Source: a virus. Taken from it: a stretch of 64,000 nt of DNA. A model generated the notes under the pieces. That model did no database searches and was not told the origin of the DNA. It worked only from the letters and a program-made list of their open reading frames with translations. Shown here piece after piece: positions 31,507 through 61,849 of the stretch; the first letter of the stretch is position 1; each line of letters starts with the position of its first letter. The DNA is taken from positions 1 to 64,000 of the IMG/VR virus record IMGVR_UViG_3300034107_000725; one strand, 5' to 3'. The position numbers and the translations under genes are program-made.

Positions 31507-32535
31507 ATGGCAGATACATCGATTCGCACGAACTCACCTGACCCAACCAAGTACCATCCAAATGTTGGAGGTATGCCGGGTACAATGCTGCCCCGATCCG
31601 GATCCGACGGACAGTCTTTGGGCTTTGATCACAATCGCCCGCAGATCGTGATTGTGGACCCTGGAGAGCTTGGCGGTGGATTTACCCTGGATATGTCTTC
31701 GCTCTCCAAGTTGAAACAAAACTTCAACTCCGCAGCTATCCGAAAAGAAGTTGCAAGTGACGTCAGTTCGTTTTATCGTGAGATCAGTCAACGTATGATA
31801 AACGAACCAAAAGTCCCCGCAGCTCCAACCATACCATCAATTCAGAAAGTCCAAGTCGTGCCAGAACCACTGAAGCCATTAAGTAGCTTACCACCTGTGT
31901 CAGTAGTCCAGGAAATTGAGTCACCTGAATCAATTTCACTGCAGATTGATACGCTGTTGCAAGAAGAATTCAACAAGGCATCTGCGTTACGCCAGCAGTT
32001 CAATAATCCAACTGCTCCCGTACAGCCGCAACCTTCGTCTCCGTCATTAGAGGCACAACAGCTCAGATTACAGGTAGCCCAGCAGACTGCTATGATCAAC
32101 TCGATGGTTTCTCGACTCAACATGCTGACAGATAAAGCTGTAGTACCCGAGACAAAACCCGTTGAGCCTGTGACACCGCCAGTTGACGTAGACGCCATTC
32201 TGTCAAAAGCGTTTCAAGGGCTTCAAATTCCGTTTTTTAACAGCGACAAGCCGGAACGCCCACAGTATGAAACCTATTTTGAGATGGCGAAAATGGGTAC
32301 AATGGCGGCTCGCTACCATGCTGTGATACTGGGCCAAGACTGTTTGGCTCTTGTCTATGACACACGCTTTGCTGACGGTTTTCAGTATCTACCGCCAAAC
32401 TTGGGCGAAGAGTTGATCACAGTCTCGGTTCCGAAGCTCAAAGAAGCAAACTGTGTATGCTCTTCGTTGGGGCTACACTGGACGCTCGGTTGTCTGGATG
32501 TTGTCATCCTCATTCGACACAAGGGAGAAGTTTGA
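31507..32535 (+). CDS. Hypothetical protein, Pro/Gln-rich centre
   Basis: 342-aa ORF upstream of the probable portal. Confidence 0.7.
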   Translation: MADTSIRTNSPDPTKYHPNVGGMPGTMLPRSGSDGQSLGFDHNRPQIVIVDPGELGGGFTLDMSSLSKLKQNFNSAAIRKEVASDVSSFYREISQRMINEPKVPAAPTIPSIQKVQVVPEPLKPLSSLPPVSVVQEIESPESISLQIDTLLQEEFNKASALRQQFNNPTAPVQPQPSSPSLEAQQLRLQVAQQTAMINSMVSRLNMLTDKAVVPETKPVEPVTPPVDVDAILSKAFQGLQIPFFNSDKPERPQYETYFEMAKMGTMAARYHAVILGQDCLALVYDTRFADGFQYLPPNLGEELITVSVPKLKEANCVCSSLGLHWTLGCLDVVILIRHKGEV

Positions 32536-32744
32536 TGGCTATGGAAAAGAACGGTGCGATCAGTAACGAAACTCCAAACTGCGGCAACAACTGTGGCTGC
32601 TCCAAGCAGGCCAGTGCACGGCAGCAAAATTTGACTCCGGGATCTCTGTTCCCGGATACGATTAAAGAAGCCAACGCAATGGACGACGATATCACTAAAA
32701 GAGCTGTAGAAGCCGTTCGTGCTTCCACAAAAGTCACACAGTAA
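32535..32744 (+). CDS. Small protein with KQA/KEA/KRA motifs
   Basis: ATG overlaps the TGA of the previous gene; CGNNCGCSKQAS. Confidence 0.6.
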   Translation: MAMEKNGAISNETPNCGNNCGCSKQASARQQNLTPGSLFPDTIKEANAMDDDITKRAVEAVRASTKVTQ

Positions 32745-48173: not shown

Positions 48174-48818
48174 TTGCCATACAAATCAGAAGCTCAACGA
48201 CGCTACTTCAACGCTAATCGCGATAAGTTGGAAGCTGAAGGTGTTGACGTCGACGAATGGAACCAATCCAGTAAGGGTAAAAAAATGCCAGAAAAGACTG
48301 CAATCGAGAAGTTGGCTCGCTGTTGGAAAGGGTACGAACCAGTACCAGGCAAAGCACCCTACAGCGACGATAGCTGTCGCCCTAAAGGGTCAAAGGCTAA
48401 AAAAAAGGATGAGAAGCAGGCTTCTTTAATTCCGGATTTTAACAGTGTCCGAGGACTGGCCAAGCTAGCGGCTACCAGTGTGGCTTACAGCCTTGGAATG
48501 CCTGCGGCGTCATCGGCAATTGGTGCGGGCATGGGTTATCTTGGACATAAATTGTCTGATGCCATCCATCCTTATGAAGATGAGGATGATCGGAGACAAG
48601 CTCGTAATACCTCAATGCTGATGGGAGCGGGTGGAGGTTTGGGGCGAGGCATGTTACACGTAGCTATGCGAAATGCTAACCAAGCGTCCATGGATCCCGG
48701 AGCGTCGACATCCAAAGAGCGTCAGGCTGCGTTTGAGTTTAAGATGAGTCAGCGGGCAAAGGAAAACGCGGCAAAGGTTAATGCCGTGATGGAACGCATA
48801 AAAGCAACCGGCAAATAA
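48174..48818 (+). CDS. Modular putative virion protein with K-x-A junctions
   Basis: AAGGAGG RBS plus TTG; modules MPYKSEAQRRYF..., RCWKGYEPVPGK...SCRP and a Gly-rich hairpin, separated by EKTA/EKLA/EKQA/AKLA. Confidence 0.7.
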   Translation: MPYKSEAQRRYFNANRDKLEAEGVDVDEWNQSSKGKKMPEKTAIEKLARCWKGYEPVPGKAPYSDDSCRPKGSKAKKKDEKQASLIPDFNSVRGLAKLAATSVAYSLGMPAASSAIGAGMGYLGHKLSDAIHPYEDEDDRRQARNTSMLMGAGGGLGRGMLHVAMRNANQASMDPGASTSKERQAAFEFKMSQRAKENAAKVNAVMERIKATGK

Positions 48819-48842
48819 GTAGTTACACACAAGGATCAGATC

Positions 48843-50477
48843 ATGCCAACAGGTGAATTCTTAAAAAAGTTGCTCTTGACTGCGGGGGCACAAGCAAAGC
48901 CTCTTGCGTCAAGTGCCGCCAAGAATATCCTGCCGTCTGCTGTAGCAGGTACGGCAGGATATGCTGCAGCTCCTTCCCTGAGTGACTGGGCGGGTATTGA
49001 TACAGATATGGGCAGGAAAGTCAATCAGGCAGGTACGGCAGCAGCTTGGGCCTTGGCGGCATCACCGCAAGGGCGTATGCACATATTGACGAAAAGCAAC
49101 GTGCGGGGGTTGAACGATCTCAGTAAGTCTACTGGTAGATCTGTTAAAGAATTACTGGAGCAGGATCCAAACCTTGCTCGTAAGTTTGCTCCGATAAGGG
49201 GTCCGTTGCAAGCAGGGTTGGTAGGATCGTTACCAACAACAGCAGCCCACTACGGGGACTCATTTAGAGGATTAAAGAAAAAATTGGACTTGGCGGTTAA
49301 GACACACGCGGACGACCCAAACCTGTTTAACCCGGATTACCACGTTAATAAGCTATTTGACAAAGGTGTCAACAAGCTGCACGGTTACTTGCCGGGAGCA
49401 GGTACAGTGGCAGGCAGTGCTATCGGTAGTGGCTTAGGCGGTGGGATGGGGCGAATTATATCTAACATGCTCTTACCAGTGGGTCACGGTAATCATGATC
49501 CAATGGACGAAAAAGAATACTACCAACGACGGCGGCGTGAACGTATTCACAGTTTGGCAGGCCTGGCTGGCATGGTCGCAGGCGGTGGGCTGGGGGCACA
49601 CTTTGGTTCGCTGTATGCTCCAAATCTAGGCGAACGTATGCTTGCTAAAGCTCGACCGCTCATAGATCAGGCATACAAAACTCCGTTGCGTGATTTTGTT
49701 AGCGAGCAGACAAGTATGCCAAAGCTCCCGGACATGTCTCGGCTTGCTGGTTTAAGCAAGGCTAGCTCAATACGGGAACTGGCAGTTAAAGCCGCTTTCG
49801 ACACTGCGACAATCAAGGATAAGGCGACTCGCCTGGGAAAATCTGTATGGGGCCACACCAAGGATACGGGCAGATATCTTGCTGATATGCCCACACCGCA
49901 AGCTATGGTGGTTGGCTCCGGATTAGGTAGTGGTTTAGGTTACCTGCGACACTCGGTGCGAGAGTTGATAGACCCTGCGGAGAAAGAAGAGGATCGAAAG
50001 ATTCGGCGTAATGCCGCAATGATCAACGGTGCTATGTTTGGCGGCGGTGCTGTGTTAGCCCGCACCGGGATCAATCGATTTAGGGATTATAATAGTGAAA
50101 TGAGTAAGCTCAATGAGCAAGAAGCTAAGCTGGACAGCAGTTTGGCTGATTCAAACGCAAAAAGCATAGCAAAGCAAAAAGCCATGAAGTATCTTGAATC
50201 ACGCAGAGGTCAGCGGGAGTTGGCGGAGCACGAACGACCTTGGTCAATTAATTTTAATCGAGTTAAGCCAACAGCTTGGCCAAAAGAGGCTCTCAAAGCT
50301 ATAGCACCTTACAGCCCAGAGGCACAAGGATATGCCAATTGGTTGCAGGAACACTGGTGGAACGAGTCTGATCCAAACAAGTCCAAACTTGCGTTAGCTC
50401 TACAGGCCCTCGGCAGCGACAAACCAAAATCACCCGGGGCAAAGACAGAACCAGTCATGACCATGGGTGCAAAGTAA
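48843..50477 (+). CDS. Gly/Ala-rich putative internal virion / membrane-inserting protein
   Basis: Several glycine-zipper-like hydrophobic helices; SKASS..LAVKAAF junction. Confidence 0.65.
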   Translation: MPTGEFLKKLLLTAGAQAKPLASSAAKNILPSAVAGTAGYAAAPSLSDWAGIDTDMGRKVNQAGTAAAWALAASPQGRMHILTKSNVRGLNDLSKSTGRSVKELLEQDPNLARKFAPIRGPLQAGLVGSLPTTAAHYGDSFRGLKKKLDLAVKTHADDPNLFNPDYHVNKLFDKGVNKLHGYLPGAGTVAGSAIGSGLGGGMGRIISNMLLPVGHGNHDPMDEKEYYQRRRRERIHSLAGLAGMVAGGGLGAHFGSLYAPNLGERMLAKARPLIDQAYKTPLRDFVSEQTSMPKLPDMSRLAGLSKASSIRELAVKAAFDTATIKDKATRLGKSVWGHTKDTGRYLADMPTPQAMVVGSGLGSGLGYLRHSVRELIDPAEKEEDRKIRRNAAMINGAMFGGGAVLARTGINRFRDYNSEMSKLNEQEAKLDSSLADSNAKSIAKQKAMKYLESRRGQRELAEHERPWSINFNRVKPTAWPKEALKAIAPYSPEAQGYANWLQEHWWNESDPNKSKLALALQALGSDKPKSPGAKTEPVMTMGAK

Positions 50478-50482
50478 CACTG

Positions 50483-50800
50483 TTGAAGTACTTTGAGTTC
50501 AAACCCATATCGATTCTGATGCTCGCCTTGTTTTCAAGCCCGTGTGGGCTGATTCTCCGAGCTTATCTACCGATTACCGCCTGGGTGTTGATCATGGGCG
50601 GTGTTTTCTTTGGTACATGGATTTCTGTGGTGGGTGATGGCTGGTTGCAGTATGTGTTATGCTCCGGCTGGTTCTGTCTGGGTTACGCTCTTTCAACCAA
50701 TGCTCCGGAGATTCACTATGCTAAGACCAACGCTTCACGAGCTGGGTATCCATCACCACACCGACAAAGCCGTTTATCACCTGTTCACCGTGATCTATGA
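50483..50800 (+). CDS. Small membrane protein
   Basis: Hydrophobic segments; TTG start and 83-nt overlap with the next gene make it uncertain. Confidence 0.4.
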   Translation: MKYFEFKPISILMLALFSSPCGLILRAYLPITAWVLIMGGVFFGTWISVVGDGWLQYVLCSGWFCLGYALSTNAPEIHYAKTNASRAGYPSPHRQSRLSPVHRDL

Positions 50801-51356
50801 CACGTGGTTTTCAAAGATAAGAGACGAGCAGATTCGTTTGTTGGAGATAGGTGTTTTGATCGGCGGCTCGCTACGCATGTGGGAAGAGTACTTTCCAGGT
50901 GCTGAGATTCACGGAGTAGATATTGACGACAGGACAGAACATGCAACCTCCCGCATCTCTGTTTACCGTGCGGATCAAACCAAGATAGAAGATCTAGAGG
51001 CACTACCTCGAGATTGTCACATCATCGTTGACGACGGTGGCCATACGATGCTGCAACAGCAGATAACACTCAACACGTTGTTTGACAGTCATCTCCTACC
51101 GGGCGGCACCTACGTTCTTGAAGATCTGCACACCTCTGACGTGGAACACTATCCGAAGTGGGCAGCCTACGGTTCAAACATGAGAAACAACACACTAAAG
51201 CTGCTGGAAGATTTGCAACGAGGCGTACTTTCAGAGAATAATGAGTATTACATCAGTGGTGCTGATTTCTGTCGATTAAGGGATCAGATCGCTTTTATTG
51301 AGATCGTAAGGGTCAAAGCGGACTCAGTCACGTCACGCATCGTCAAGAAGACATGA
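50718..51356 (+). CDS. Class I SAM-dependent methyltransferase
   Basis: TDK, LLEIGV..GGSL, GVDID, IIVDDGGH, YVLEDLH; GGAG RBS favours ATG 50718. Confidence 0.88.
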   Translation: MLRPTLHELGIHHHTDKAVYHLFTVIYDTWFSKIRDEQIRLLEIGVLIGGSLRMWEEYFPGAEIHGVDIDDRTEHATSRISVYRADQTKIEDLEALPRDCHIIVDDGGHTMLQQQITLNTLFDSHLLPGGTYVLEDLHTSDVEHYPKWAAYGSNMRNNTLKLLEDLQRGVLSENNEYYISGADFCRLRDQIAFIEIVRVKADSVTSRIVKKT

Positions 51357-53428
51357 ACCCTATGCCCACACTGCAAGACTTAGCCAAGGTAGCCGCACTC
51401 CGAAGTGAGGTGACGCTGCAACCACACCAGCAGAAGGTAGTCGACCGCATCAACAGCGGCGATAAACGCCTTCTGCTTTATCACGGACTGGGAAGTGGTA
51501 AGAGTCTTTCGTCATTGGCTGCCGCTGAGGCTGCTGGTGACGATTACGACGTTGTGGTCCCTGCAGCTCTGCGGCCAAACTACCAGAAGGAAGTTGCCAA
51601 GTTTACAGAAGGCTCAAACCCAGAGGTTCTGAGCTACACCGGGATTGGTGCAGGCAAGACATTCCAGACATCACCCAAGACAATCATCTTTGACGAAGCC
51701 CACAGACTTCGTAACCCGGGCACAGCGAGCACACAGGCTGCGACAGAGTTGGCCAATGAAGCGGAGAACCTTCTGCTCCTGACAGGCACACCGATCACCA
51801 ACTCACCGACAGATCTGGCACCACTGCTCTCGATGCTTCGCAAAGAGAAGATCACACCAGAGCAGTTTGAGCGAAACTACATTGGACACCGCAAGGTCTA
51901 TCCAACCTGGCTCAGTCGTCTGACAGGACGAGGCGTAGGTGAAGAAGCCTATGTCAAGAATGAAGACAATTTGCGGGAACAGCTCAAAGGCCTGATCGAC
52001 TATCAGCCCAGCAAGACACCGGAAGGCGTAAACGTCAACGAAGAAACGGTACGGGTGCCGCTGAGTCGAGGACAGTCACGCATACAGCAGGCGGTGAGGG
52101 ATAAGATCCCGCCAGAGTATGCCTGGAAGTTGGACAAAGAGTATCCGCTCACTCGAGAAGAGTTGAGTCGGATGAACTCGTTTCTGACGGGACTACGGCA
52201 GTCAAGCCTCTCGACTCAACCCTTTCGCGGTGATCGTGACCCACTCAACGCGTTTGACGAATCAAGCAAACTCCAAAAGGCGTTTGGAGATTTGCAAGAA
52301 ACACTGAAGACAGATCCACGTAAAAAAGCCTTGGTGTATTCCAACTACATCGACGCAGGCCTGGGTCCATATGCAGCAGCTCTTCAGCGAGCCAAGATCC
52401 CGTATGGCATGTATCACGGCAGCATGCCAGTTGAGGAACGTAAAAAAGCTCTTCAAGACTATAACGAAGGAACACTGAAAGCTCTGCTGCTTGGCCCAGC
52501 CGCTGCGGAAGGCATCAGCACACAAGGCACAAGTTTGATTCAGCTGCTTGATCCTCACTGGCATGAGTCACGAGGACGACAAGCCGAAGGACGTGGGCTG
52601 CGATTCGACTCACACGAAGGCTTACCATCTGAGCTGAAAAACGTAGCGATAAAGCGTTATCTATCGGAAAGTCAGGATCCGTCCTTTATAATGTCACTTC
52701 TTGGTGCACGAAGACAACGCACAGGTGACGAGATCTTAGAACGGCTGGCTGCTAATAAAGAGCAGCTCAATAATCAGTTTCGTAAGATCCTTCAGGAGGA
52801 AGGCAGTTCGATGAATAAGCAATCGTCCCACCGCAGGAATGTTCCAATCGGTATTGCCTATGACCCAGAGATGCACGCGGCGTTGATTCGCTGGGAAAAT
52901 GCCAAAAGCAAGCGGTTGTCACCCGGATTGCAGCGACAAGTGCAGGCAAACCTGGGTTGGACAGGCAAACAAGTGGCGGACGACCTGGATCTTGTTGAGT
53001 TGTTGATGGAGCAGGAAGACGCCAAAGAACAAAGCATGAAAGCCACTGGCCCGATACAGGCGTTGGCCAAGATGGCTGCATGCGGCGACACATGCAGATG
53101 CGGGCAGACTGAGAACGAATGCACCTGCTCTGACGTTGAGAAGCTGGCACGCCTGGTCGCCAAACAGGCTTCCGGTGGAGCCTGGACACGAGCGGAGGGT
53201 AAGAGCGAGTCAGGCGGTCTCAACGCCAAAGGACGAGCCAGCCTCAAAGCTCAGGGACAGAACATCAAACCACCAGTGACCGAAGACAAACCTACGGGCG
53301 AGCGAGCTGGGCGTAAGTCCAGCTTTTGTGCTCGTATGGGTGGCATGAAGAAAAAGCTGACCAGCTCAGAGACTGCCAATGATCCAGATAGCCGTATCAA
53401 CAAAGCACTGAGAAAATGGAATTGCTGA
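51353..53428 (+). CDS. SNF2-family helicase fused to a C-terminal DUF6321-like module
   Basis: HGLGSGKS, IFDEAH, LTGTP, AAAEGIS, QAEGRGLR; C-terminal AWTRAEGK..GGLNAKGR..SFCARM..SRINKALRKWNC. Confidence 0.88.
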   Translation: MNPMPTLQDLAKVAALRSEVTLQPHQQKVVDRINSGDKRLLLYHGLGSGKSLSSLAAAEAAGDDYDVVVPAALRPNYQKEVAKFTEGSNPEVLSYTGIGAGKTFQTSPKTIIFDEAHRLRNPGTASTQAATELANEAENLLLLTGTPITNSPTDLAPLLSMLRKEKITPEQFERNYIGHRKVYPTWLSRLTGRGVGEEAYVKNEDNLREQLKGLIDYQPSKTPEGVNVNEETVRVPLSRGQSRIQQAVRDKIPPEYAWKLDKEYPLTREELSRMNSFLTGLRQSSLSTQPFRGDRDPLNAFDESSKLQKAFGDLQETLKTDPRKKALVYSNYIDAGLGPYAAALQRAKIPYGMYHGSMPVEERKKALQDYNEGTLKALLLGPAAAEGISTQGTSLIQLLDPHWHESRGRQAEGRGLRFDSHEGLPSELKNVAIKRYLSESQDPSFIMSLLGARRQRTGDEILERLAANKEQLNNQFRKILQEEGSSMNKQSSHRRNVPIGIAYDPEMHAALIRWENAKSKRLSPGLQRQVQANLGWTGKQVADDLDLVELLMEQEDAKEQSMKATGPIQALAKMAACGDTCRCGQTENECTCSDVEKLARLVAKQASGGAWTRAEGKSESGGLNAKGRASLKAQGQNIKPPVTEDKPTGERAGRKSSFCARMGGMKKKLTSSETANDPDSRINKALRKWNC

Positions 53429-53466
53429 GTGCTTTTTCTCAACCCTCAACTCGTTAGGAGACTCTT

Positions 53467-53967
53467 GTGAAGCAAGCCGCTGACACTGGCCCACAAAGCA
53501 TGCTGCAAAATCTGGTTTTTAACTGCATCGACCTGAGCTTGCTGTTCAAGCATTGCCACTGGAATGTCAGAGGCGTGATGTTTAAACCACTACACGACTT
53601 TCTTCAAACGGTCTACGAAACTCTGTCTGACATCACTGATGACGTGGCCGAGCGTCAGGTGATTATGGGTACTCCGTCCAGCGGCCTGATAGCTGGAGTT
53701 GTAGCCCAGACAGCCATGGATCCTTTACCGGTCAAATTCCTCTCTCCTGAGGAAATTGTTAACGAATTGACCGACCGGCTTACTCAGCTGGTTGAGCAGT
53801 TCAACGACGCGATACGTACTGAACAGAATCCAGTCACCGGCAATATGCTTCAGGACATGACTGCAAGACTTGAGAAACATTTATGGATGCTTCGAAGTCA
53901 AAAGGCAGAGGTTGAGTATGCCACCAAGGTGGCCCTAGCTCGAGCTGCAGTCCATTTACGAGGTTAA
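53467..53967 (+). CDS. dps: Dps-family ferritin-like protein
   Basis: HWNVRG, LHDF, DDVAER ferroxidase-site motifs; EKHLWML; AGGAG RBS plus GTG. Confidence 0.9.
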   Translation: MKQAADTGPQSMLQNLVFNCIDLSLLFKHCHWNVRGVMFKPLHDFLQTVYETLSDITDDVAERQVIMGTPSSGLIAGVVAQTAMDPLPVKFLSPEEIVNELTDRLTQLVEQFNDAIRTEQNPVTGNMLQDMTARLEKHLWMLRSQKAEVEYATKVALARAAVHLRG

Positions 53968-53983
53968 ATTCCGTTGACAATTC

Positions 53984-54009
53984 CCCAGGAGGGAACGCCA
54001 TAATGCCAC
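53984..54009 (+). repeat. 26-bp direct repeat copy 1 (RBS plus start)
   Basis: cccaggagggaacgccataatgccac; 25/26 identical to 54875-54900. Confidence 0.9.
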
Positions 54010-56594
54010 CGCCAACCAAATATGGACCAAACACTCCGGCAAGTCCAGTTGCACCGGCTCCCACACCAGTCGCACCCATTCCGGCAAGTCCAGTTGCACC
54101 AGCAGCCACACGTGTTGCACCAGCAGCCACACCAGTCGCACCCATTCAGCACCGGCCAGCCATAGTACGTAGCACGCCGCAAGGTCTGGTTGCTTCGTTG
54201 GCGGATCAACTGCCTTTAGGGTATAAAAATGAAGCTCAGGCGGCGGCCTCCGCTTATCGGAAGCTCAACCCAAAATTAAATTGGCCTTCGGATATCTCAC
54301 ATCGGGCACTCAATCGGCAAGTTCCGGTGAATTACGTGTCAGAGTTTGATGATCCAAGTACTAACGGACAATACCAACCGGCCACAGATCAAATATCTTT
54401 GCGGGCAGGGCTTAAGCCAAAAGCCATGGGAACGACATTGCAGCACGAGTTGACACACGCAACGCAGTTCCAGGGCAATATACCTGTACAACGCAGTTCG
54501 ACTACGCAGCCTATGCTTCAAAAGACGATGGAGAGCCAAAACTACGATCCTGCTACGGCTAGATCGTATTCAAGCTATATGACGGATCCAACAGAACAAG
54601 AGGCTTTCTTGGCGGGGCTTAAGCGAAATCACTATGTACAAACGGGTAAGCATATACGAACTAAAGATGAAGCTCGAAAAATGCTAATGGACTTGCCAAA
54701 CACACCCGAAAATAAGGATCAAGAGGCGTCTATGGGTACTTTGCTTAGGGCTCCGCAACTAAACAATACACCCGAAGGTGCAGCGGCCAAGGCTCAGTGG
54801 ATTGAGTCGCTCAGTAAAATGCTACCCGGACTGGTCCAAGGTAACTCACTAACTCTCGGCAAGACCGCAAACTTCCCAGGAGGGAACGCCATGATGCCAC
54901 AAGCAGCTCCAAACGGTTTCAACCCAAATGTCTTTAGTCACAACAACTTCTCCGGGACTTTCCCGATGAGTCAGGCTTTGCCCGCTAAACCGAACCCACT
55001 GTCCGCAGCACCACAAATGGGTGGTGTGAAAGCTGATGCCAATGGCATTCAGGCTGCGATGGCCAAGCGAGGCTCGCAGGATAACAGTGCTCCTCGTTGT
55101 TCATCCGCTGGTGAGAGTAAGGGTGTTGGTTACAAGATGGATGATGAAGGTCACACGACTGGTGGCAGTGCGTTTAGCACACTTGACAAATACATGAAGA
55201 AAGCTGGGCTTAATAGCTTTCAAACTCAGTTTTTCGGGCGTCTAATTCAGTCTGGCATGAATGAAGCTCAGCTACATCATGCGGTTAAACAAGCTCAAAT
55301 TCAGTTTGGCGAAAAGGTTGCCAGCGAACTGGTTGACGGATTGGAAAAGCTGGCGGTTACACCTTTCTCAGGTGCGGGTCGTCTGGCAAGAGAATTTGGC
55401 ACTGATTTGCTTAACACAGGAACGCGATATGCCGGTAATGCGATTAACGGTATTGGCGGGTTTGCCAGAGGTTTAGTGGGCAAGAAAGTTGCTCCCGGAG
55501 CGTCCGAGATAGGAGCCATGGCACAGCAGGCAGGACGTAAAGCAAAAACGCTCGGTCGTAAGTATGTGATAAATCAGGACGTGGGTACAGGCATGGCAAC
55601 CGGTGCCTTTAACCCGTACACCAGTACGCTATACGACGAACAGGGAAATCTGGACTTAGCCACTACGGCTCGCAATGCAGCCCTTGGTGGATTGGCTGGC
55701 GGTGTTGTGAAGCAAACTCCACTAAGGTGGAACGCAAGACAACGCCAGGAGCAGCTGATGGCAGGCAGCGGTATTGGGCTTGCTGGAGGACATTTGGCAA
55801 ACGCGTTAGGTGCCGATGTTGATCCGACGCGAGCGGCTCAAATTGGAGGTGCTGCGGGTTTACTTCCTCGCAACATCAGAGGCAGGAACATGTCAAAAGT
55901 TATGCCAAAATTTGATCCTACGGACATCGGTGCCCAGGCAAAGAATGTAAGGGCAGCTGGCCGTTACGCTCGTGACGCAGCTAAAAACGCTCCGGAAGGT
56001 AGTTTGGCAAAGGCTACAATGATTGGCGGCGGTTTGGGGCTGGGCGTAGGTATGCCTATGGCAACTTATGCAGGGCTTTCCCAGATGGGGACCAACGCAG
56101 GAAATGCAGCCATGCAGCAGCCTGAAGTGCAATCAACTCTAAAAAGGTTAAATGCTACACAACAACAGGTGCAGCAAGTTGCAGACAAGGTAAACCGGTT
56201 TGCCGCCCCGTTTCAGGATGACAAAGGCCAGTTCGATCTCATGGGCGGGCTTAGACGCCAGCTCGGTTTAGGCGAAGGCGGCACTGGGTTGGGTGCTGTG
56301 GGTGACTACTTGCGACAAAATCCACAGCTGGCCTCTGCCGGTTTGTTGAGCTTGTTGGGCATGGGTACTGGTTACATGGCTGGCGGTGGGCGTGGTGCGG
56401 CTTTGGGCGGCCTGTCTGCTCCTTTGCTAAACTACTTGGTGCAGTCACAACTTGGCGGAAATACCGCACCTGACATAGCTGGTACAAACCAAGCCGCAGC
56501 TCCTGCGGCTTCAGCAACTCCCGGCGTAGGTGAGTTTGACAGGAATCGGGAGAATGAAATCGTACAGCAACAACTCGGCTATAGTCCTAACTAA
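54003..56594 (+). CDS. Large modular putative virion protein: Pro/Ala repeats, HExxH zincin-like domain, Gly/Ala-rich C-terminal region
   Basis: PASPVAPA repeats; LQHELTHATQ plus downstream EQEA; KTAN/KKAG/EKLA junctions; in-frame internal start near 54891. Confidence 0.75.
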   Translation: MPPPTKYGPNTPASPVAPAPTPVAPIPASPVAPAATRVAPAATPVAPIQHRPAIVRSTPQGLVASLADQLPLGYKNEAQAAASAYRKLNPKLNWPSDISHRALNRQVPVNYVSEFDDPSTNGQYQPATDQISLRAGLKPKAMGTTLQHELTHATQFQGNIPVQRSSTTQPMLQKTMESQNYDPATARSYSSYMTDPTEQEAFLAGLKRNHYVQTGKHIRTKDEARKMLMDLPNTPENKDQEASMGTLLRAPQLNNTPEGAAAKAQWIESLSKMLPGLVQGNSLTLGKTANFPGGNAMMPQAAPNGFNPNVFSHNNFSGTFPMSQALPAKPNPLSAAPQMGGVKADANGIQAAMAKRGSQDNSAPRCSSAGESKGVGYKMDDEGHTTGGSAFSTLDKYMKKAGLNSFQTQFFGRLIQSGMNEAQLHHAVKQAQIQFGEKVASELVDGLEKLAVTPFSGAGRLAREFGTDLLNTGTRYAGNAINGIGGFARGLVGKKVAPGASEIGAMAQQAGRKAKTLGRKYVINQDVGTGMATGAFNPYTSTLYDEQGNLDLATTARNAALGGLAGGVVKQTPLRWNARQRQEQLMAGSGIGLAGGHLANALGADVDPTRAAQIGGAAGLLPRNIRGRNMSKVMPKFDPTDIGAQAKNVRAAGRYARDAAKNAPEGSLAKATMIGGGLGLGVGMPMATYAGLSQMGTNAGNAAMQQPEVQSTLKRLNATQQQVQQVADKVNRFAAPFQDDKGQFDLMGGLRRQLGLGEGGTGLGAVGDYLRQNPQLASAGLLSLLGMGTGYMAGGGRGAALGGLSAPLLNYLVQSQLGGNTAPDIAGTNQAAAPAASATPGVGEFDRNRENEIVQQQLGYSPN
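54035..54147 (+). repeat. Imperfect tandem repeats encoding a Pro/Ala linker
   Basis: tccggcaagtccagttgcacc at 54035 and 54080; ccacaccagtcgcacccattc at 54061 and 54127. Confidence 0.85.
54875..54900 (+). repeat. 26-bp direct repeat copy 2 (internal RBS plus in-frame ATG ATG)
   Basis: cccaggagggaacgccatgatgccac. Confidence 0.9.
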
Positions 56595-56617
56595 AGAAGT
56601 ATCCAGGAGACACAACG

Positions 56618-57295
56618 ATGCTTGAGCTACCAACCGTCACAGCAATCTGCTACGAAGGCAGTCGGCTGAGTCCTGACCAGATTAAGTACTATGAATTAAT
56701 GCTGCGGCATGTGAATAGGACTGTCCGGTTCAACTCTATCAAGTTTTTTGCTCACACTCCCCACCAGTTTGAAGGAGTTGAGCAGATTGCCGTGCCGCAT
56801 ACTAGCCGAGCCGACTACAGTCAATGGTGCATTCATAACTTGGGAACATACTTTGACACGGAACACGTGTTAATTTTTCAGTGGGATGGTTATCCGCTGA
56901 ACCCACACCTGTGGACTGATGAATTTTTACAGTATGACTACATTGGAGCCCCTTGGTCCTGGAAGCAGCACCATAGATTTCGCCGATCAAACCCAGAGCA
57001 CCTGGTTGGTAACGGGGGTTTCAGTCTTCGCAGCCGTAAGCTATATCAAGAGCTTTTAAAGCACCCTGTAAGCAAAGAAAACGAGGATCTCTACATCTGC
57101 TGCGATTTGCGACCAAAACTAGAGGCCAACGGAGTCAAGTTTGCACCGATGGACGTAGCCAAGCGGTTTGCCGTTGAGGTGCAGCTTTCCCCTGAGCACA
57201 CGATAACAAATACTTTTGGGTTTCACGGTGGGCATAAAAGCTGGGTCGAAGCCATACCATCATACCCACAGTATGCGAACAACTTCCTGCCGTGA
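56618..57295 (+). CDS. DUF5672-family glycosyltransferase-like protein
   Basis: IFQWDG, YDYIGAPW, VGNGGFSLRS, NED, FAVE, FGFH. Confidence 0.85.
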   Translation: MLELPTVTAICYEGSRLSPDQIKYYELMLRHVNRTVRFNSIKFFAHTPHQFEGVEQIAVPHTSRADYSQWCIHNLGTYFDTEHVLIFQWDGYPLNPHLWTDEFLQYDYIGAPWSWKQHHRFRRSNPEHLVGNGGFSLRSRKLYQELLKHPVSKENEDLYICCDLRPKLEANGVKFAPMDVAKRFAVEVQLSPEHTITNTFGFHGGHKSWVEAIPSYPQYANNFLP

Positions 57296-57360
57296 GTAAA
57301 ATCGCAGCTTATTTCAGATTTCATGGTGGACATGGAAGTCGGATTGAGGCTATAAATACG

Positions 57361-57660
57361 TAGTCGCAATACACGGGAAGAGTCTTCCACTATGACCTTG
57401 ACCTGCGAAGATGAGTGAGTAGCCAGCTGGGGTGAGGCGGGTCTCTCAATTACCGGACTACACCAGCTGGTAGGTTGTTTGTCTTATCTTCAGGACAAAT
57501 AACAGGACGTTGCCGGAGGGAACACCTCGCTAACGACGTCTCGGGCAACTGTAACGTGATGGATCCATGGAAGTTTTGACTCCTCCGGGTCTCCTTTTGC
57601 TTCCCCGTCACAAACTTGGAGCCGCTATCGCTCGCAGACGATATGCTTCGACTGAGGTAA
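57361..57660 (+). ncRNA. Candidate structured non-coding RNA (unassigned)
   Basis: ~400-nt ORF-free gap between convergent genes with six adjacent stems; G-U pairs favour the + strand. Confidence 0.55.
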
Positions 57661-57691
57661 AGCCCAAAAGGCCGATGCCAGGTGTGGTTGC

Positions 57692-58414
57692 CTAGCTCAT
57701 CTTTTCTTCTTCAGCTGCAGCTTCGGCTGCAGCTTTTTCTTTTAAGCGGTGCTTGTGAGCAACACCCAGTAGACCCGATAGCCCTGAGTATCTTGTGCCT
57801 TCGAACTGACGGGCGTTGACGCAAACAAACCAGTCCACGATGACGGATTCCAGGCTGGTCTGACGCAAGTGCCGGGATGGCTCGATCACTTCAGTGACAA
57901 CCACGCGATCGCCGTAGTGTTCCATAAACTTACGTTGAGTATCGAGGTTGTCTGTGGCGAGAAAGAGCTTCTCGTCGGGACGCAGTTCAGCATCAAGCCA
58001 CTCAAAGAACTCTTCGTCACGCGTGACACCATCGTGGCCCGTTGCCGGTATCTTGTCGGTTCTACGAGCATGGATAGCCAGATAAGACGGAGTCAGGCGA
58101 CTCATCACTTCATCGATACGAGCCTGAGTGCGAGGTCGGGGAATCATATCGTGGAAGTAATAGTTGCTAAACGGATCGTAAGGAGGAAGAAAATCGTAGC
58201 CTTTGTAGTGTGGTTTTTTTGTATCGTCGGTGAACTCTACCCCAGGAATTGGTTCTAAGTGATCCAGATAGCGTCCAGGACAGTCGGCGTTGGGAACCCA
58301 GCAGACGACCAGGATGTTATTGTTGGCTCGGGAGCGTTGCAGGAAGCTGAAAAGAACACGTATACGGTCGGCAAAACCTGTAGAGGTCTGGACCTTGAAT
58401 CGTTGACCTGCCAT
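57692..58414 (-). CDS. GT-B O-fucosyltransferase-like glycosyltransferase
   Basis: STGFADRIR, LAIHARRTD, LFLATDN, VIVDWFVC..A..F.GT..SGLS; AGGAG RBS favours start 58414. Confidence 0.7.
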   Translation of the reverse strand: MAGQRFKVQTSTGFADRIRVLFSFLQRSRANNNILVVCWVPNADCPGRYLDHLEPIPGVEFTDDTKKPHYKGYDFLPPYDPFSNYYFHDMIPRPRTQARIDEVMSRLTPSYLAIHARRTDKIPATGHDGVTRDEEFFEWLDAELRPDEKLFLATDNLDTQRKFMEHYGDRVVVTEVIEPSRHLRQTSLESVIVDWFVCVNARQFEGTRYSGLSGLLGVAHKHRLKEKAAAEAAAEEEKMS

Positions 58415-58448
58415 GATATCGGGGTCTCCTGTGACATGAATAGGGTGT

Positions 58449-58476
58449 ATTATAGTCCAGCTCAAGTCTTCTGCAA
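58449..58476 (-). promoter_or_regulatory. Possible sigma70-like promoter for the minus-strand gene
   Basis: TATAAT (58449-58454, - strand) with TTGCAG 16 bp upstream. Confidence 0.4.
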
Positions 58477-58488
58477 AATACGGAATTT
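58475..58488 (+). promoter_or_regulatory. Repeated motif copy AAAATACGGAATTT
   Basis: In the divergent intergenic region, 3 nt before ATG 58492. Confidence 0.7.
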
Positions 58489-58491
58489 GCC

Positions 58492-59283
58492 ATGAAATCT
58501 GTGCATGCTTACAGCTTCGAAACCACTGGGATGGCGATTATCCCAAAAGCCCTGAGTCTTGAGAAGGTAGCTGAGGCCAAGCAGCTGATACAGAATAACT
58601 GGCCGAGCGGTGCTCCCTGGAAGTTTCCTGTGTTGCACCTGGGCCGAGTCTTCTGGGAGATGATGACGCAGCCTGTGATGCTTGAGCTGTGTCAGCAGTT
58701 CGCCGGAGATCACTTCAGAATGGATCACGCCTTCGGTCTGACAAGTAACGGGGCTCACGCTCAACTCCACGGTGGACCGCAATCCAGCCAGTACTCCTGC
58801 TTCTACTTGCCGCTAAGCGGTGCTCAACATCCTGGAATTGCCGGGCAGTTGAACTTTGGGTTTTGCCTGGAAGGACAAAGCTCGTACACAGGTGGATTTT
58901 GCTATATACCGGGCAGTCATAAGTCTGTTGATCCGAGAGCGGGTCGTGAGGTCCTGGCTGAGGTTTACCGTAACGATTTTACTCATCATTCGATCGTAGT
59001 ACCACGCCTGGCAGCCGGAGACATGATTCTGTTCACAGAGGCTCTGATTCATGGTGATACGGGTTGGCGGAACCTCACACCCGGTAGTTGTCGAATGCAG
59101 GTCTATTACAAGATGACACCCGGGTTCATGTGCTGGCGTGACCCTGCGGAAAATGCTCACCTGTTGCAGTATGCCAAGACAGATTTAGAACGACGAATGA
59201 TGGCAGCACCTTGGACAGGGCGGTATAGTGAGACGGCCACGGCCATGGGCATCACCAACTCAAGACGGGAACCAACAGTATGA
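58492..59283 (+). CDS. PhyH-like 2OG-Fe(II) dioxygenase
   Basis: FRMDH, LHGG, GGFCYIPGSHK, AGDMILFTEALIHG. Confidence 0.85.
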   Translation: MKSVHAYSFETTGMAIIPKALSLEKVAEAKQLIQNNWPSGAPWKFPVLHLGRVFWEMMTQPVMLELCQQFAGDHFRMDHAFGLTSNGAHAQLHGGPQSSQYSCFYLPLSGAQHPGIAGQLNFGFCLEGQSSYTGGFCYIPGSHKSVDPRAGREVLAEVYRNDFTHHSIVVPRLAAGDMILFTEALIHGDTGWRNLTPGSCRMQVYYKMTPGFMCWRDPAENAHLLQYAKTDLERRMMAAPWTGRYSETATAMGITNSRREPTV

Positions 59284-60209
59284 AGCTAGCCGTAATCATC
59301 CGCATCCTTGGTAACGAAAATCCACCACGAGACATCCCCGGTGAACGCGTCAAGGTGTTAAAACACATTTTGGAAAACGAACCGCAGCCTCCTGAAGTCG
59401 TACGGTTCTTCATCCTTAACCGAATCGTTTCAGACGAGTACCGTAAAGAGCTTCAGACTTTGCTGGAGTCTTACCAGCTTCCAGTGGTGATAATTCCGTT
59501 TAACTGGCGGATAAAAACCACTGTGGAATCGGTGGCTATCCACGGAATTGCGATCAACCATGCCCGTAATGTTGCCATTGCCTGTGGGGCAAACGTCGCT
59601 CGTTACACGATCGTGCTTGACGGTGACTGTGGGTTCACGGAAGAAGGTCTGTCTCCAGTGTTAGAAGAGATGAGACGAGACAGGTACAAGTATCTCAGCA
59701 TCCCACACCGAAGAGACGGGCAGGAGCGGCAAGGCGAACCCATGCTGGCGTTTCGTAACGACTCAGAGCTTAGGTTTGACGAGCTCTTGGCGTTTGGGCA
59801 AAAGGATAAATTAGAGCTGCTGTTCCAGCTGGGCCATGATCCAACACCATACTCTGGACACCTTAAGATTGAAGGAGACCAGACCAAGTTGGTAGGCGAA
59901 GTCATACACTACGCGACAGGCGAACCGGAGATTGAAGCGGACAACAAAGCCAGAGAAGCCGCTCGTCGTGCGTCTTTACAGGGGCTTGCAAGACAAATAG
60001 TAAAGCAAAAAGCCGAACGACTGCAGGAACAACGAAGACTCAGATACGAGATAGTCAGGCGGGAATGGGAAAAAAAAACTACAGGCTCTTCCATTCAGCG
60101 ATTTGATGGACACGGCAAACTAGACACTGTTACAATGATTTGCAGCTGTGGTTTGCCACAGTGTAGCTCTTTCAGGGACGAAGGAGGTTCGCCATGCAAG
60201 TATCTTTGA
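59280..60209 (+). CDS. GT-A-like glycosyltransferase
   Basis: AINHARNVAI, TIVLDGDC (DxD), EPMLAFR. Confidence 0.6.
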   Translation: MKLAVIIRILGNENPPRDIPGERVKVLKHILENEPQPPEVVRFFILNRIVSDEYRKELQTLLESYQLPVVIIPFNWRIKTTVESVAIHGIAINHARNVAIACGANVARYTIVLDGDCGFTEEGLSPVLEEMRRDRYKYLSIPHRRDGQERQGEPMLAFRNDSELRFDELLAFGQKDKLELLFQLGHDPTPYSGHLKIEGDQTKLVGEVIHYATGEPEIEADNKAREAARRASLQGLARQIVKQKAERLQEQRRLRYEIVRREWEKKTTGSSIQRFDGHGKLDTVTMICSCGLPQCSSFRDEGGSPCKYL

Positions 60210-60326
60210 AAGGCAGGTGATCGTATCTCGGTCGTGCCCGCCCCAGAAAATACTGTTAGGACGGGCACGATTCGTTCTCTGTGAATTCCAGGCAAGGATA
60301 TCTCTGTGCTAAAGTGGCTTCCGAAG

Positions 60327-60932
60327 ATGTACGACACAGGCTTCGACAAACTTGAACAGATTCTGGCCCAACAGGCACAGATTCTGAAAAATCAAGAAAC
60401 CCTGGGGCAAGAGCTTAAAGCCCAGGTTGTCAAATTGATTGACTTGGTTCAAAAAAACGGAACCAAGAAGAAACCAGGTCCGCTACTCGTAATCATTGCA
60501 GGAGAAGACCAAATGGCTGACAAAATTCTGTTCCGCGTCGTGCTTCCAGCACCATCCGCAGCTGACGTTGTAACACGTGAGCTTACTGTTGACATCAACG
60601 GCACCGTACAGGTGCTGACATTGGCTGTTGAAGATTCCAACCCGCTGGAGTTCAGCGGTGATCAAGGTGCACAGGTTTCTGTCTCCTTGGTAGACATTGA
60701 CGATTTCGGCAATCGTTCAGCAGCAACATCGACGATGCCGCAGCAACTGGCAGATAACTTTGCTCCACCTGCTCCAGGTGATCTTGGTTTTGAACTTGTT
60801 GGTGAGATTCTTGACGACACAATCGAGATCTCAGAAGAAGCAGCTGAACCAGAGATCTCCGCAGTTGATACCGCGGACGACCTGGATGCAGATACGATTG
60901 ATGACTCGGAAGACGAGTTTTTGATTGGCTAA
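60327..60932 (+). CDS. Beta-rich (FN3/Ig-like) protein with acidic tail; possible second start at 60513
   Basis: VSLVDIDDFGNRS...D..APPAPG; internal AGGAG plus ATG 60513. Confidence 0.55.
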   Translation: MYDTGFDKLEQILAQQAQILKNQETLGQELKAQVVKLIDLVQKNGTKKKPGPLLVIIAGEDQMADKILFRVVLPAPSAADVVTRELTVDINGTVQVLTLAVEDSNPLEFSGDQGAQVSVSLVDIDDFGNRSAATSTMPQQLADNFAPPAPGDLGFELVGEILDDTIEISEEAAEPEISAVDTADDLDADTIDDSEDEFLIG

Positions 60933-60947
60933 GTTCGGATAATACTG

Positions 60948-60984
60948 GGACCTGAAGCTGTGGCCACAATTTCAGGTCCTTTCT
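60948..60984 (+). terminator. Possible intrinsic terminator
   Basis: ggacctgaa/ttcaggtcc stem followed by tttct. Confidence 0.55.
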
Positions 60985-60997
60985 CTAGATCTCAAGG

Positions 60998-61849
60998 ATG
61001 ACCCTCATGACCGCGATCAGTGATAAAAACCGTGCCCTTGTTTTCAGGGCTTTGCAGGAAAAGAAGGCTTCGAGCAACTTACGTGTCAAGGTAGCTCGAC
61101 ACGTAATCAACATGAAGCTGCTTGAGCGTGAAATCGCAACTTACAATCTCGACAGGCTACAAAAAGCTGCGTCGGACGGACACTCTAAAATTGCTCGTAT
61201 GAAGTTTGCTGCTTTAGTTCTGCAACACCAGGTTGAGAAGCAAGCGTTAGGTCGAGCTCTTCTTGGCGGATTAGCAAGTGGAGCTATTGGCCTGGGTAGA
61301 AGAGCGATTGGCCGTGCTGCGGGCCTAGGTGCTCAGGCGTTAGGTACAGGTGCTAGTGCTATCGGTGCCGGGTTGCGAGCAGGAGTAACAAGAGCTCCTT
61401 TGATGGCAACTGGAGCGGCGGGCCTTGGAGGCGTTTACGCCGGTTCACAGATGCCAAGCAGAGAAGAGATGGGCAACACGTTTCAGAAAAGGGTTATAGA
61501 CCCAGTGTATTACGGAGGAGCTCGTAGGTATAACGATGCTACGTTGCCGTTCCGTAAAGCTCGTGCAGCCGCTGGTGGTGCTATTGAAGGTGCGGGCCAA
61601 GGTGCCCGCAATCTAGTTTCAATGCCAGGTCGCGGACTCAGTGCAGTCAATGACATGCTGCCTGCTAGACAAGACGTCAGTCAGTCATTGGGTACGGGAA
61701 TTGGTGACGCAATGCGGTTTGTAGGGCGACAGTTCACGCCATCGGCAAGACCAAGTCAGCCTCAAGCCAGACCTAATCCGCCTGCTCCATTTGCTGACCC
61801 AGTGAGCAGACTTCCGGAAGGCGTACCGCAGAACGACGAACCAGCGTGA
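60998..61849 (+). CDS. Gly/Ala-rich putative virion protein with K-x-A leader
   Basis: EKKASS, QKAASD, EKQALG followed by a long Gly/Ala-rich region. Confidence 0.65.
   Translation: MTLMTAISDKNRALVFRALQEKKASSNLRVKVARHVINMKLLEREIATYNLDRLQKAASDGHSKIARMKFAALVLQHQVEKQALGRALLGGLASGAIGLGRRAIGRAAGLGAQALGTGASAIGAGLRAGVTRAPLMATGAAGLGGVYAGSQMPSREEMGNTFQKRVIDPVYYGGARRYNDATLPFRKARAAAGGAIEGAGQGARNLVSMPGRGLSAVNDMLPARQDVSQSLGTGIGDAMRFVGRQFTPSARPSQPQARPNPPAPFADPVSRLPEGVPQNDEPA

Follow-up and report, generated by a model that had tools for sequence, protein, structure and literature searches.

A Lys-x-Ala motif as the probable cleavage code of a gp21-fold head protease and of a block of candidate virion cargo genes in an uncultured lake phage

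The proteins encoded at positions 48,174 to 61,849 of a viral DNA stretch raise the question of whether the short Lys-x-Ala (K-x-A) motifs that recur in them mark sites at which these proteins are cut apart. The stretch, referred to here as the window, comprises positions 1 to 64,000 of the 193,990-bp contig IMGVR_UViG_3300034107_000725 of an uncultured lake phage (G000 in our comparisons), and the genes concerned are referred to as the block. In an earlier note on this DNA, the modules of the block proteins were described as delimited by (E/A)K-x-A(A/S), and a K-x-A-specific maturation protease was proposed to release enzymes packaged in the capsid. The motif strings cited there are all present at the genes named, and the domain calls for the block are correct. 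In our assessment it is probable, with real room for doubt, that K-x-A is the cleavage code of a head protease with the fold of T4 gp21, the cut following the Ala, and that the block encodes processed virion cargo.

The enrichment of the motif in the block, as claimed earlier, holds for the tight form [EA]K-x-A[AS], which is present 8 times versus 0.8-1.1 expected (Poisson P 2e-6 to 2e-5), but the loose K-x-A is only marginally above expectation in per-protein shuffles (34 versus 25.6, p = 0.05), and among the block proteins tested singly for the loose form, solely the one encoded at 60998 is significant (6 of its 11 Lys, p = 0.004). The density of the tight motif is 1.9 per 1000 amino acids (aa) in the block, versus 0.20 in 150,000 aa of open reading frames (ORFs) from unrelated viral contigs and about 0.13 elsewhere in this genome when the head-assembly cluster described below is excluded. 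Since the tight motif was derived from the block itself, independent tests weigh more.

Such an independent hot spot lies outside the window. In the rest of the genome the tight motif is present 25 times versus 5.6 expected, concentrated in the genes at 91.7-104.2 kb, which we refer to as the head cluster. In five head-cluster proteins about half of all Lys belong to a K-x-A, namely those of the genes starting at 95861 (14 of 29 Lys), 98409 (the protease candidate, 17 of 32), 99935 (16 of 28), 101327 (7 of 10) and 103759 (4 of 6), with the strongest binomial p values from 1e-7 to 4e-4. Among 952 two-residue patterns with gaps of 0-3 residues, K.A ranks first by far in the head cluster (71 versus 20 expected, z 11-12), and the patterns ranked next (EK, K..A/S and F.K) are parts of the same consensus. 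The consensus of 59 sites, (L/F)-E-K-x-A-(A/S)-(A/D), equals the form given in the earlier note. Enrichment over a composition-matched background, whose lack that note had named as speaking against its proposal, was found both for the tight motif in the block and for the head cluster. A seven-position scoring matrix trained on the 59 sites gave an approximately two-fold enrichment elsewhere; it was judged to be over-fitted and was replaced by plain motif counts.

The reverse pattern A.K (16 versus 21 expected) and the related patterns R.A, KA, AK, K.S and K.G are unenriched in the head cluster, so that the motif is directional, Lys-specific and not an effect of Ala/Lys-rich helices. A general helix effect of this kind was ruled out by the lack of enrichment of A.K, KA, AK and R.A, and shuffling in 30-residue windows gives the same result. 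The corresponding DNA pattern AARNNNGCN is present 71 times in frame versus 12 and 4 times in the other frames, and synonymous codons are freely used; the signal is therefore at the protein level, and a motif at the DNA level was ruled out on the same grounds. Motifs of the T4 type ([LI].E, z 1.7), the phiKZ type ([AGS].E, 53 versus 55.5 expected, z -0.4) and the herpesvirus type ([VLI].A) are unenriched in the head cluster. Searches of PHROGs and Pfam gave almost no matches to the head-cluster proteins. Directly upstream of the cluster, at genome positions 88153-91335 (L002:4153-7335), a fragment of a multisubunit RNA polymerase beta-prime subunit (Rpb1 domain 5) is encoded, as in Salmonella phage Arash.

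Five related IMG/VR contigs were found, and the complete 205-kb genome G004 was analyzed whole. It contains the tight motif 33 times versus 8.8 expected, most densely in its own head cluster and in the region at 57-65 kb that corresponds to the block. The comparison of structural with replication proteins that the earlier note had suggested gave a clear difference in the orthologue alignments of G000 and G004: K-x-A is kept at 57 of 75 sites (76%) in the head cluster versus 10 of 46 (22%) in positions 1-48 kb of the window (P = 6e-9), whose first 22 kb carry replication genes (SbcC-like protein, helicases, DNA polymerase and UvsX). Of the Lys residues that belong to a K-x-A in the head cluster, 84% are kept, versus 59% of the other Lys there (P = 2e-4); the corresponding values for the replication part are 41% and 39%. 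The motif is thus strongly enriched and selectively conserved in head-morphogenesis proteins and not in replication proteins. G004 also encodes, at 54737-56800 (L100:14737-16800), a 687-aa protein of four units of about 150 residues that are separated by (KKAEEA)n, which has no counterpart in the window.

A prohead protease, which the earlier note had expected outside the window, was sought there, and a candidate with a T4-gp21 fold was found inside the head cluster, at genome positions 98409-99893 (494 aa). The protein has no sequence-level matches in Pfam, PHROGs or PDB, and a profile search against PDB sequences gave merely a chance match to flagellin; structure prediction was therefore needed to recognise the fold. 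The protein has 2,387 representative relatives in a profile search, and the AlphaFold model, built with 101 relatives, has a predicted local distance difference test score (pLDDT) of 88 and consists of an N-terminal domain (residues 1-236), a disordered link (237-260) and a helical C-terminal domain. Residues 1-236 of the model align with T4 gp21 (5JBL_B) at a VIA-align Z of 11.1 (root-mean-square deviation 3.1 Å, 151 of 164 residues), followed by the herpesvirus assemblins at Z 4.2-4.9. In Foldseek, the sole specific matches were the three 5JBL chains (probability 1.0, target-normalised TM-score 0.61-0.66). According to the predicted model, the catalytic domain of the 98409 protein has the assemblin/gp21 fold. 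Ser166 does not vary among the 101 sequences, in which His103 and His62 reach a conservation of at least 90%, and these are the candidate catalytic residues. Homologues of 850-1297 aa (such as P0001 and P0007) contain inteins (LAGLIDADG_3, Intein_splicing, Hint) at profile positions of about 165-175, next to Ser166. In 112 representatives of normal length, which share no more than about 50% mutual identity, a median of 47% of Lys belong to a K-x-A, and 150 listed relatives contain 2087 K.A versus 425 A.K, from which we conclude that the code is a trait of a very large clade.

The cultured Salmonella phage Arash (OQ632216) has a protease homologue, gp222, and the gene order gp218-gp226 is the same as in the head cluster of G000. 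Its K-x-A also account for a large share of the Lys in gp220 (10 of 21), gp223 (8 of 16) and gp225 (7 of 13). The 315-aa protein encoded at 102422 aligns with the annotated Arash major capsid protein gp226 (E = 1e-39), and an aligned K-x-A lies just before the capsid N-arm in both, as GLEKQA/IDAVNDF and GLVKEA/GAAMSAF, respectively (here and below, a slash within a peptide marks the joint); the site is also kept in G004. The core of the SNF2 helicase of the window is homologous to Arash gp217 (34% identity, E = 6e-63), for which 38 unique peptides and 1148 spectra were reported by liquid chromatography-mass spectrometry of virions, a value near the 1333 spectra of the capsid protein (PMC10585845). 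This abundance of an SNF2 homologue is the sole experimental hint for packaging. The Arash proteins gp221 and gp224, which are Gly-rich and have K-x-A near the N-terminus, were also detected in the virions (PMC10585845). The RNA polymerase subunits of Arash rank among its most abundant virion proteins.

In the SNF2 chain of the block (691 aa, plus strand, 51353-53428), Pfam and AlphaFold delimit an SNF2 helicase (aa 15-485), a tail module, a Cys-rich mini-module and DUF6321 (aa 616-689). Its 14-residue N-terminal leader, MNPMPTLQDLAKVA, ends in K12-V-A14 (51386-51394), and three further K-x-A lie in the linker upstream of DUF6321 (AKMAA at 53069-53077, EKLAR at 53141-53149 and AKQAS at 53162-53170). 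In the AlphaFold model K12-A14 lies in coil before the first strand, K573, K597 and K604 fall within residues 560-623, where the pLDDT is below 50, and two K-K-A outside the consensus lie within the folded helicase. The leader is predicted to be coil, and the earlier description of short helical leaders is thus not confirmed for SNF2. We compared 120 SNF2 homologues (61-99% identical in the core, 462-1201 aa), and 110 of them begin with a leader that differs in length and sequence but closes with K-x-A right before the conserved [AD]LxxD[VI]QLQ. K12 is present throughout an alignment of 62 homologues, and A14 in at least 90% of them. The folded core contains 114 K-x-A versus about 389 expected and no tight motif, and the tails contain 30 tight motifs.

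The SNF2 homologues carry swapped C-terminal modules (Dps, kinase, NUDIX, acylphosphatase and others), and every added Pfam domain examined has P(M/V)-K-x-A in front of it, between the domains. Combinations of several domains were found as well, namely SNF2 with kinase and Dps, SNF2 with NUDIX and Dps, and acylphosphatase with SNF2 and Dps. In the metagenomic fusions P0155, P0156 and P0159, repeats of RKILQEEGTP(M/V)-K-x-A stand on both sides of the inserted modules (a kinase among them), and judging from these repeats it looks as if cassettes were inserted by recombination at the joint. The Dps/ferritin-like gene of the window (53467-53967, plus strand; Pfam Ferritin E = 3e-16) has K-Q-A at codons 2-4 (53470-53478) and K-V-A close to the C-terminus (53926-53934). 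Its start, M-KQA-ADTGPQS-MLQNLVFNCI, matches PM-KQA-ADGTQS-TLQNLVFNCI in the SNF2-Dps fusion P0167; since the N-terminus corresponds to a fusion joint, the gene is a split-off module that has retained the joint, and MKQAA is a remnant of a former SNF2-Dps fusion and not a leader. A K-x-A after the Dps fold recurs in the 13 distinct SNF2-Dps fusions examined.

DUF6321 is also fused to various other proteins in relatives. The Trp of the domain has a K-x-A 3-6 residues ahead of it in 50 of 75 fusions, with very different sequences upstream. In the fusion of the form E-K-I-A/KSPAW, a cut after Ala would yield the N-terminus (M)AKSPAW of the standalone protein, and it is mainly for this reason that we place the cut after Ala. 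The standalone DUF6321 protein is a highly conserved ORF of 81 aa (MAKSPAWQRKEGK...), about 72% identical to the copy in the window, which is found in hundreds of small viral contigs (loci L017-L092).

In the related phages the modules of the block are arranged differently and are distributed over other proteins. Because of this shuffling, global orthologue alignment of the block proteins to G004 was mostly impossible, and a local breakpoint analysis was used instead. Of 26 internal homology breakpoints against the five related phages, clustered by hand, 9 lie within 3 residues of a K-x-A versus 1.75 expected (P < 5e-5). The position of the sites at domain boundaries, as described in the earlier note, thus agrees with the breakpoints, with the Pfam coordinates and with the AlphaFold model of SNF2. 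Across the wider diversity K and A alone persist, and the flanks and the spacing to the module vary.

The first protein of the block (48174-48818, plus strand, 214 aa) is a string of modules: the KSEAQ module (aa 1-40) is followed by KTA (48294-48302), KLA (48309-48317), the CWKGYE..SCRP module (aa 49-73), KQA (48414-48422), KLA (48462-48470) and a Gly-rich hydrophobic tail, and breakpoints lie 0-1 residue from three of the four K-x-A between 48294 and 48470. The KSEAQ module ends after PEKTA (aa 43) here and after PEKKA in G004 and G005, and the CWKGYE module starts after EKLA (aa 48) here and after DK(V/D)AA in G004 and G005, and ends at EKQA (aa 83) or KKAA.

The 863-aa protein at 54003-56594 (plus strand) consists of a Pro/Ala-rich N-terminus, a zincin-like domain (aa ~113-173), a conserved middle module (aa ~316-451) and a Gly-rich hydrophobic C-terminal half. 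The zincin-like domain has the HExxH motif HELTH and scores 26.7 bits against Pfam DUF6782, for which the cut-off is 27. Two of the K-x-A between 54861 and 55355 are supported by comparison, GKTAN (54861-54869) and EKLA (55347-55355), and the homology of the middle module stops exactly at A451 of the latter. In G004 the zincin and the middle module are in two separate proteins, the middle module standing behind NUDIX and K-E-A, and the joint TKEA/SMFP of G004 aligns 6-7 residues downstream of GKTA. Of the sites in between, KKA (55197-55205) is conserved within the module and EKVAS (55314-55322) is not conserved; the latter, cited in the earlier note, is without independent support, as is VKAAF in the 48843 protein.

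The 283-aa protein at 60998-61849 (plus strand) has an N-terminal part of 83 residues with six K-x-A (61061-61246), followed by a Gly-rich hydrophobic and Pro-rich remainder. This design resembles that of the head-cluster protein encoded at 97224 and of the Arash virion proteins gp221 and gp224, and the G004 gene at 67452, placed like 60998, has four K-x-A in its N-terminus but no BLAST homology to 60998. BLAST comparison of the Gly-rich block proteins with the Arash head-cluster proteins detected no similarity.

The 544-aa Gly-rich, Gly-zipper-like protein at 48843-50477 (plus strand; K-x-A at 4 of 42 Lys, no tight form) has no relatives at E < 1e-6 in the comparison with the related phages and is a weak candidate for the system. 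The methyltransferase-like gene at 50601-51356 (plus strand) is free of the motif and therefore probably does not encode a substrate. The genes at 56618-60932 (plus strand) for DUF5672, a PhyH-like dioxygenase, a 309-aa protein and a 208-aa acidic protein have no conserved K-x-A joints in the comparison with relatives, and hence are probably outside the system. The sole minus-strand ORF of the block (57692-58465, 257 aa) is a putative gene with a weak O-fucosyltransferase match (E = 0.002) and EKAAA near the C-terminus; it likewise has no conserved K-x-A joint and is probably outside the system. Elsewhere in the window, a small ORF at 32457-32744, upstream of a 638-aa gene, encodes Cys pairs and three K-x-A (SKQAS, IKEAN and TKRAV). 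A megablast search of the block against 50,697 phage records gave no matches.

The substrates of T4 gp21 are gp23, gp22, the internal proteins IPI-III and Alt (with a capsid-targeting sequence). The protease of G000 resembles gp21 in its fold, as predicted from the model, and in that its gene adjoins scaffold-like and capsid genes and that a three-residue motif is dense in the scaffold-like proteins and in the protease itself. As in IPI-III and Alt, a short N-terminal leader of the predicted cargo ends in the motif (SNF2 here). It differs from gp21 in the apparent motif, K-x-A here versus (L/I)-x-E in T4, and in an extra folded helical C-terminal domain, and unlike T4 cargo the candidate substrates include multi-module chains with internal joints and not N-terminal leaders alone. 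A matching picture is known for T4, phiKZ and SPN3US: the motif read by their gp21-type protease is three residues long, is abundant in scaffold and propeptides, and forms the end of the leaders on proteins that are packaged (PMC10052503, PMC13282480, PMC5512222). Read from the substrate side, neither (L/I)-x-E nor (S/A/G)-x-E, after whose Glu gp21-type proteases cut, is enriched in the head cluster. Like the phages of phiKZ gp175 and SPN3US gp245, G000 is a large phage with pieces of a multisubunit RNA polymerase, and as in them extensive processing of many head and ejection proteins would be expected, with several motif copies within propeptides (PMC10052503); those two proteases cleave after S/A/G-X-E or A-X-E (PMC10052503, PMC13282480), whereas [AGS].E is unenriched here. 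As the pattern is that of T4, phiKZ and SPN3US, but K-x-A is enriched and the T4, phiKZ and herpesvirus motifs are not, we take K-x-A with a cut after the Ala as the code of the gp21-fold protease.

Herpesvirus assemblin cuts after Ala, with Ser at P1', in sites of the form (V/L/I)-x-A-S. It has distantly the same fold (Z 4.2-4.9), and by analogy its sites resemble the proposed K-x-A followed by A or S; unlike in assemblin, P3 is Lys here and not aliphatic, and [VLI].A is unenriched. The chains of the block may also be compared with the polyvalent proteins of phages and conjugative elements, of which an SWI2/SNF2 ATPase and a zincin-like metallopeptidase are hallmarks and for which delivery with the DNA and proteolytic processing were predicted (Iyer, Burroughs, Anand, de Souza and Aravind 2017; PMC5512222). 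As in polyvalent proteins, unrelated enzymatic domains are joined in one polypeptide (SNF2 and DUF6321 in the window), and both hallmark domains are present (SNF2-rel_dom and Helicase_C above the Pfam cut-offs, DUF6782 just below), but in separate proteins. Unlike in polyvalent proteins, there is a defined joint motif, which matches the apparent substrate motif of the head protease rather than the zincin; most of the modules are small basic domains, Dps, NUDIX or kinases, and the adenine methylase partner is absent. No description of a K-x-A cleavage code was found in the literature searched, and a comparable cleavage site is not described in the Arash paper, the phage G paper or a 2026 jumbo-phage review.

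The mechanism that we propose is as follows. The prohead maturation protease would recognise (L/F)-E-K-x-A followed by A or S; it would be the serine protease of T4-gp21/assemblin fold encoded at 98409-99893 and would most likely cut after Ala. For the head cluster this would mean that the scaffold-like proteins, and the protease itself, are degraded by way of the motif and that N-terminal propeptides are taken off at it; one site stands directly ahead of the N-arm of the major capsid protein. From the block at 48-62 kb, cargo would be produced as chains that enter the prohead and are separated there at their joints: the SNF2 helicase with its short leader and C-terminal add-ons (DUF6321 in the window, and Dps, NUDIX, kinases and acylphosphatase in related phages), several small basic modules strung together, the zincin-like protease, and Gly-rich hydrophobic proteins that probably act at ejection. 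We infer the cutting, the scissile bond, packaging and injection from the enrichment, directionality, selective conservation, joint position and family-wide spread of the motif and from the protease fold. The proposal of the earlier note is partly supported, its core having survived every computational test run (enrichment, conservation, protease fold and joints).

Several observations weigh against this mechanism. The loose K-x-A is not above chance in the block, and most block proteins are individually unremarkable. The joint motif is missing in 25 of the 75 DUF6321 fusions, and the Dps gene of the window stands alone, without a carrier. The SNF2 homologues are mutually related, so that the counts within the family, including the depletion in the core, are not independent, and K12 and A14 are kept even where the leader is merely M(G)K-x-A, so that they could belong to the helicase fold. 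Arash gp217 has neither the leader nor a K-x-A motif and is nevertheless found in virions; packaging in Arash thus does without a leader, an argument against its being strictly required for loading into the prohead core. Moreover, the Arash virion proteome lists 116 of 272 annotated features, including many metabolic enzymes (PMC10585845), and is therefore weak proof of packaging.

Three other explanations were weighed against the cleavage code. If K-x-A were an uncut joint or linker (a hinge, a capping motif or a preferred recombination joint), the chains would act intact as multidomain polyvalent proteins; the recombination-like repeats of the longer joint around the modules inserted in SNF2 fusions, the retention of K-x-A with minimal SNF2 leaders and the location of many sites of the protease in its confidently folded parts, which are hard for a protease to reach and in themselves count against cleavage, would fit such a role. 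However, the motif codons are not conserved at the DNA level, K and A alone persist while flanks and spacing vary, and a joint would explain neither the enrichment in scaffold-like proteins and in the protease (z about 12) nor the site before the capsid N-arm, nor the Lys specificity (R.A being unenriched) and the depletion in the helicase core. We consider this explanation unlikely. A different enzyme, such as the zincin-like metallopeptidase of the block, another phage protease or a host protease, might instead cut K-x-A, and not necessarily inside the capsid. Iyer et al. (2017) proposed that polyvalent proteins are processed by their own zincin-like domains (PMC5512222), and the block does contain such a domain with HExxH, but the zincin was found solely in G000 and G004, and a single-sequence search did not find it in the complete Arash genome or in the contigs G001-G003 (76-84% complete), all of which use K-x-A, so that the zincin is unlikely to be the K-x-A protease. 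Additionally, the motif is densest in the gp21-fold protease and in the proteins encoded next to it, as is the case for T4, phiKZ and SPN3US, and cutting by another enzyme appears very unlikely to us.

Finally, K-x-A might be a sequon for modification of Lys (methylation, acylation or glycation) or the site at which head proteins are cross-linked. Its strict Lys specificity would suit this role, and the phage has many transferases, with methyltransferase- and glycosyltransferase-like genes interleaved with virion genes; nevertheless, a sequon leaves unexplained the position at joints, the homology breakpoints, the variable leaders that end in K-x-A, the match of KIA/KSPAW to the standalone N-terminus and the depletion in the folded helicase core, and we regard it as highly improbable.

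The cleavage reading may be extended, more tentatively and with somewhat more doubt than belief on our part, to a plug-and-play grammar shared by a very large clade of aquatic phages, most of them uncultured. Whatever module is placed between K-x-A on a carrier, which may be the SNF2 helicase or a Gly-rich ejection protein, would enter the prohead, be cut free by a gp21-fold protease that has switched to an assemblin-like P1 Ala, and be delivered to the host with the DNA. Such a grammar, if true, would allow fast exchange of take-over and anti-defence cargo, and the Dps, NUDIX, kinase and DUF6321 modules do move between carriers at a defined joint. The proposal is testable now in Arash, a cultured relative with published virion mass-spectrometry data. 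Head-protease codes are experimentally known for few phages, (L/I)-x-E for T4 and (S/A/G)-x-E for phiKZ and SPN3US. If K-x-A is a cleavage code, Lys-x-Ala would be a third one, and the family of about 2,400 representative clusters would have a new specificity on the assemblin fold. It would also offer a testable mechanism by which polyvalent chains are taken apart, and mature protein ends and virion cargo would become predictable from sequence in thousands of genomes in which profile libraries fail.

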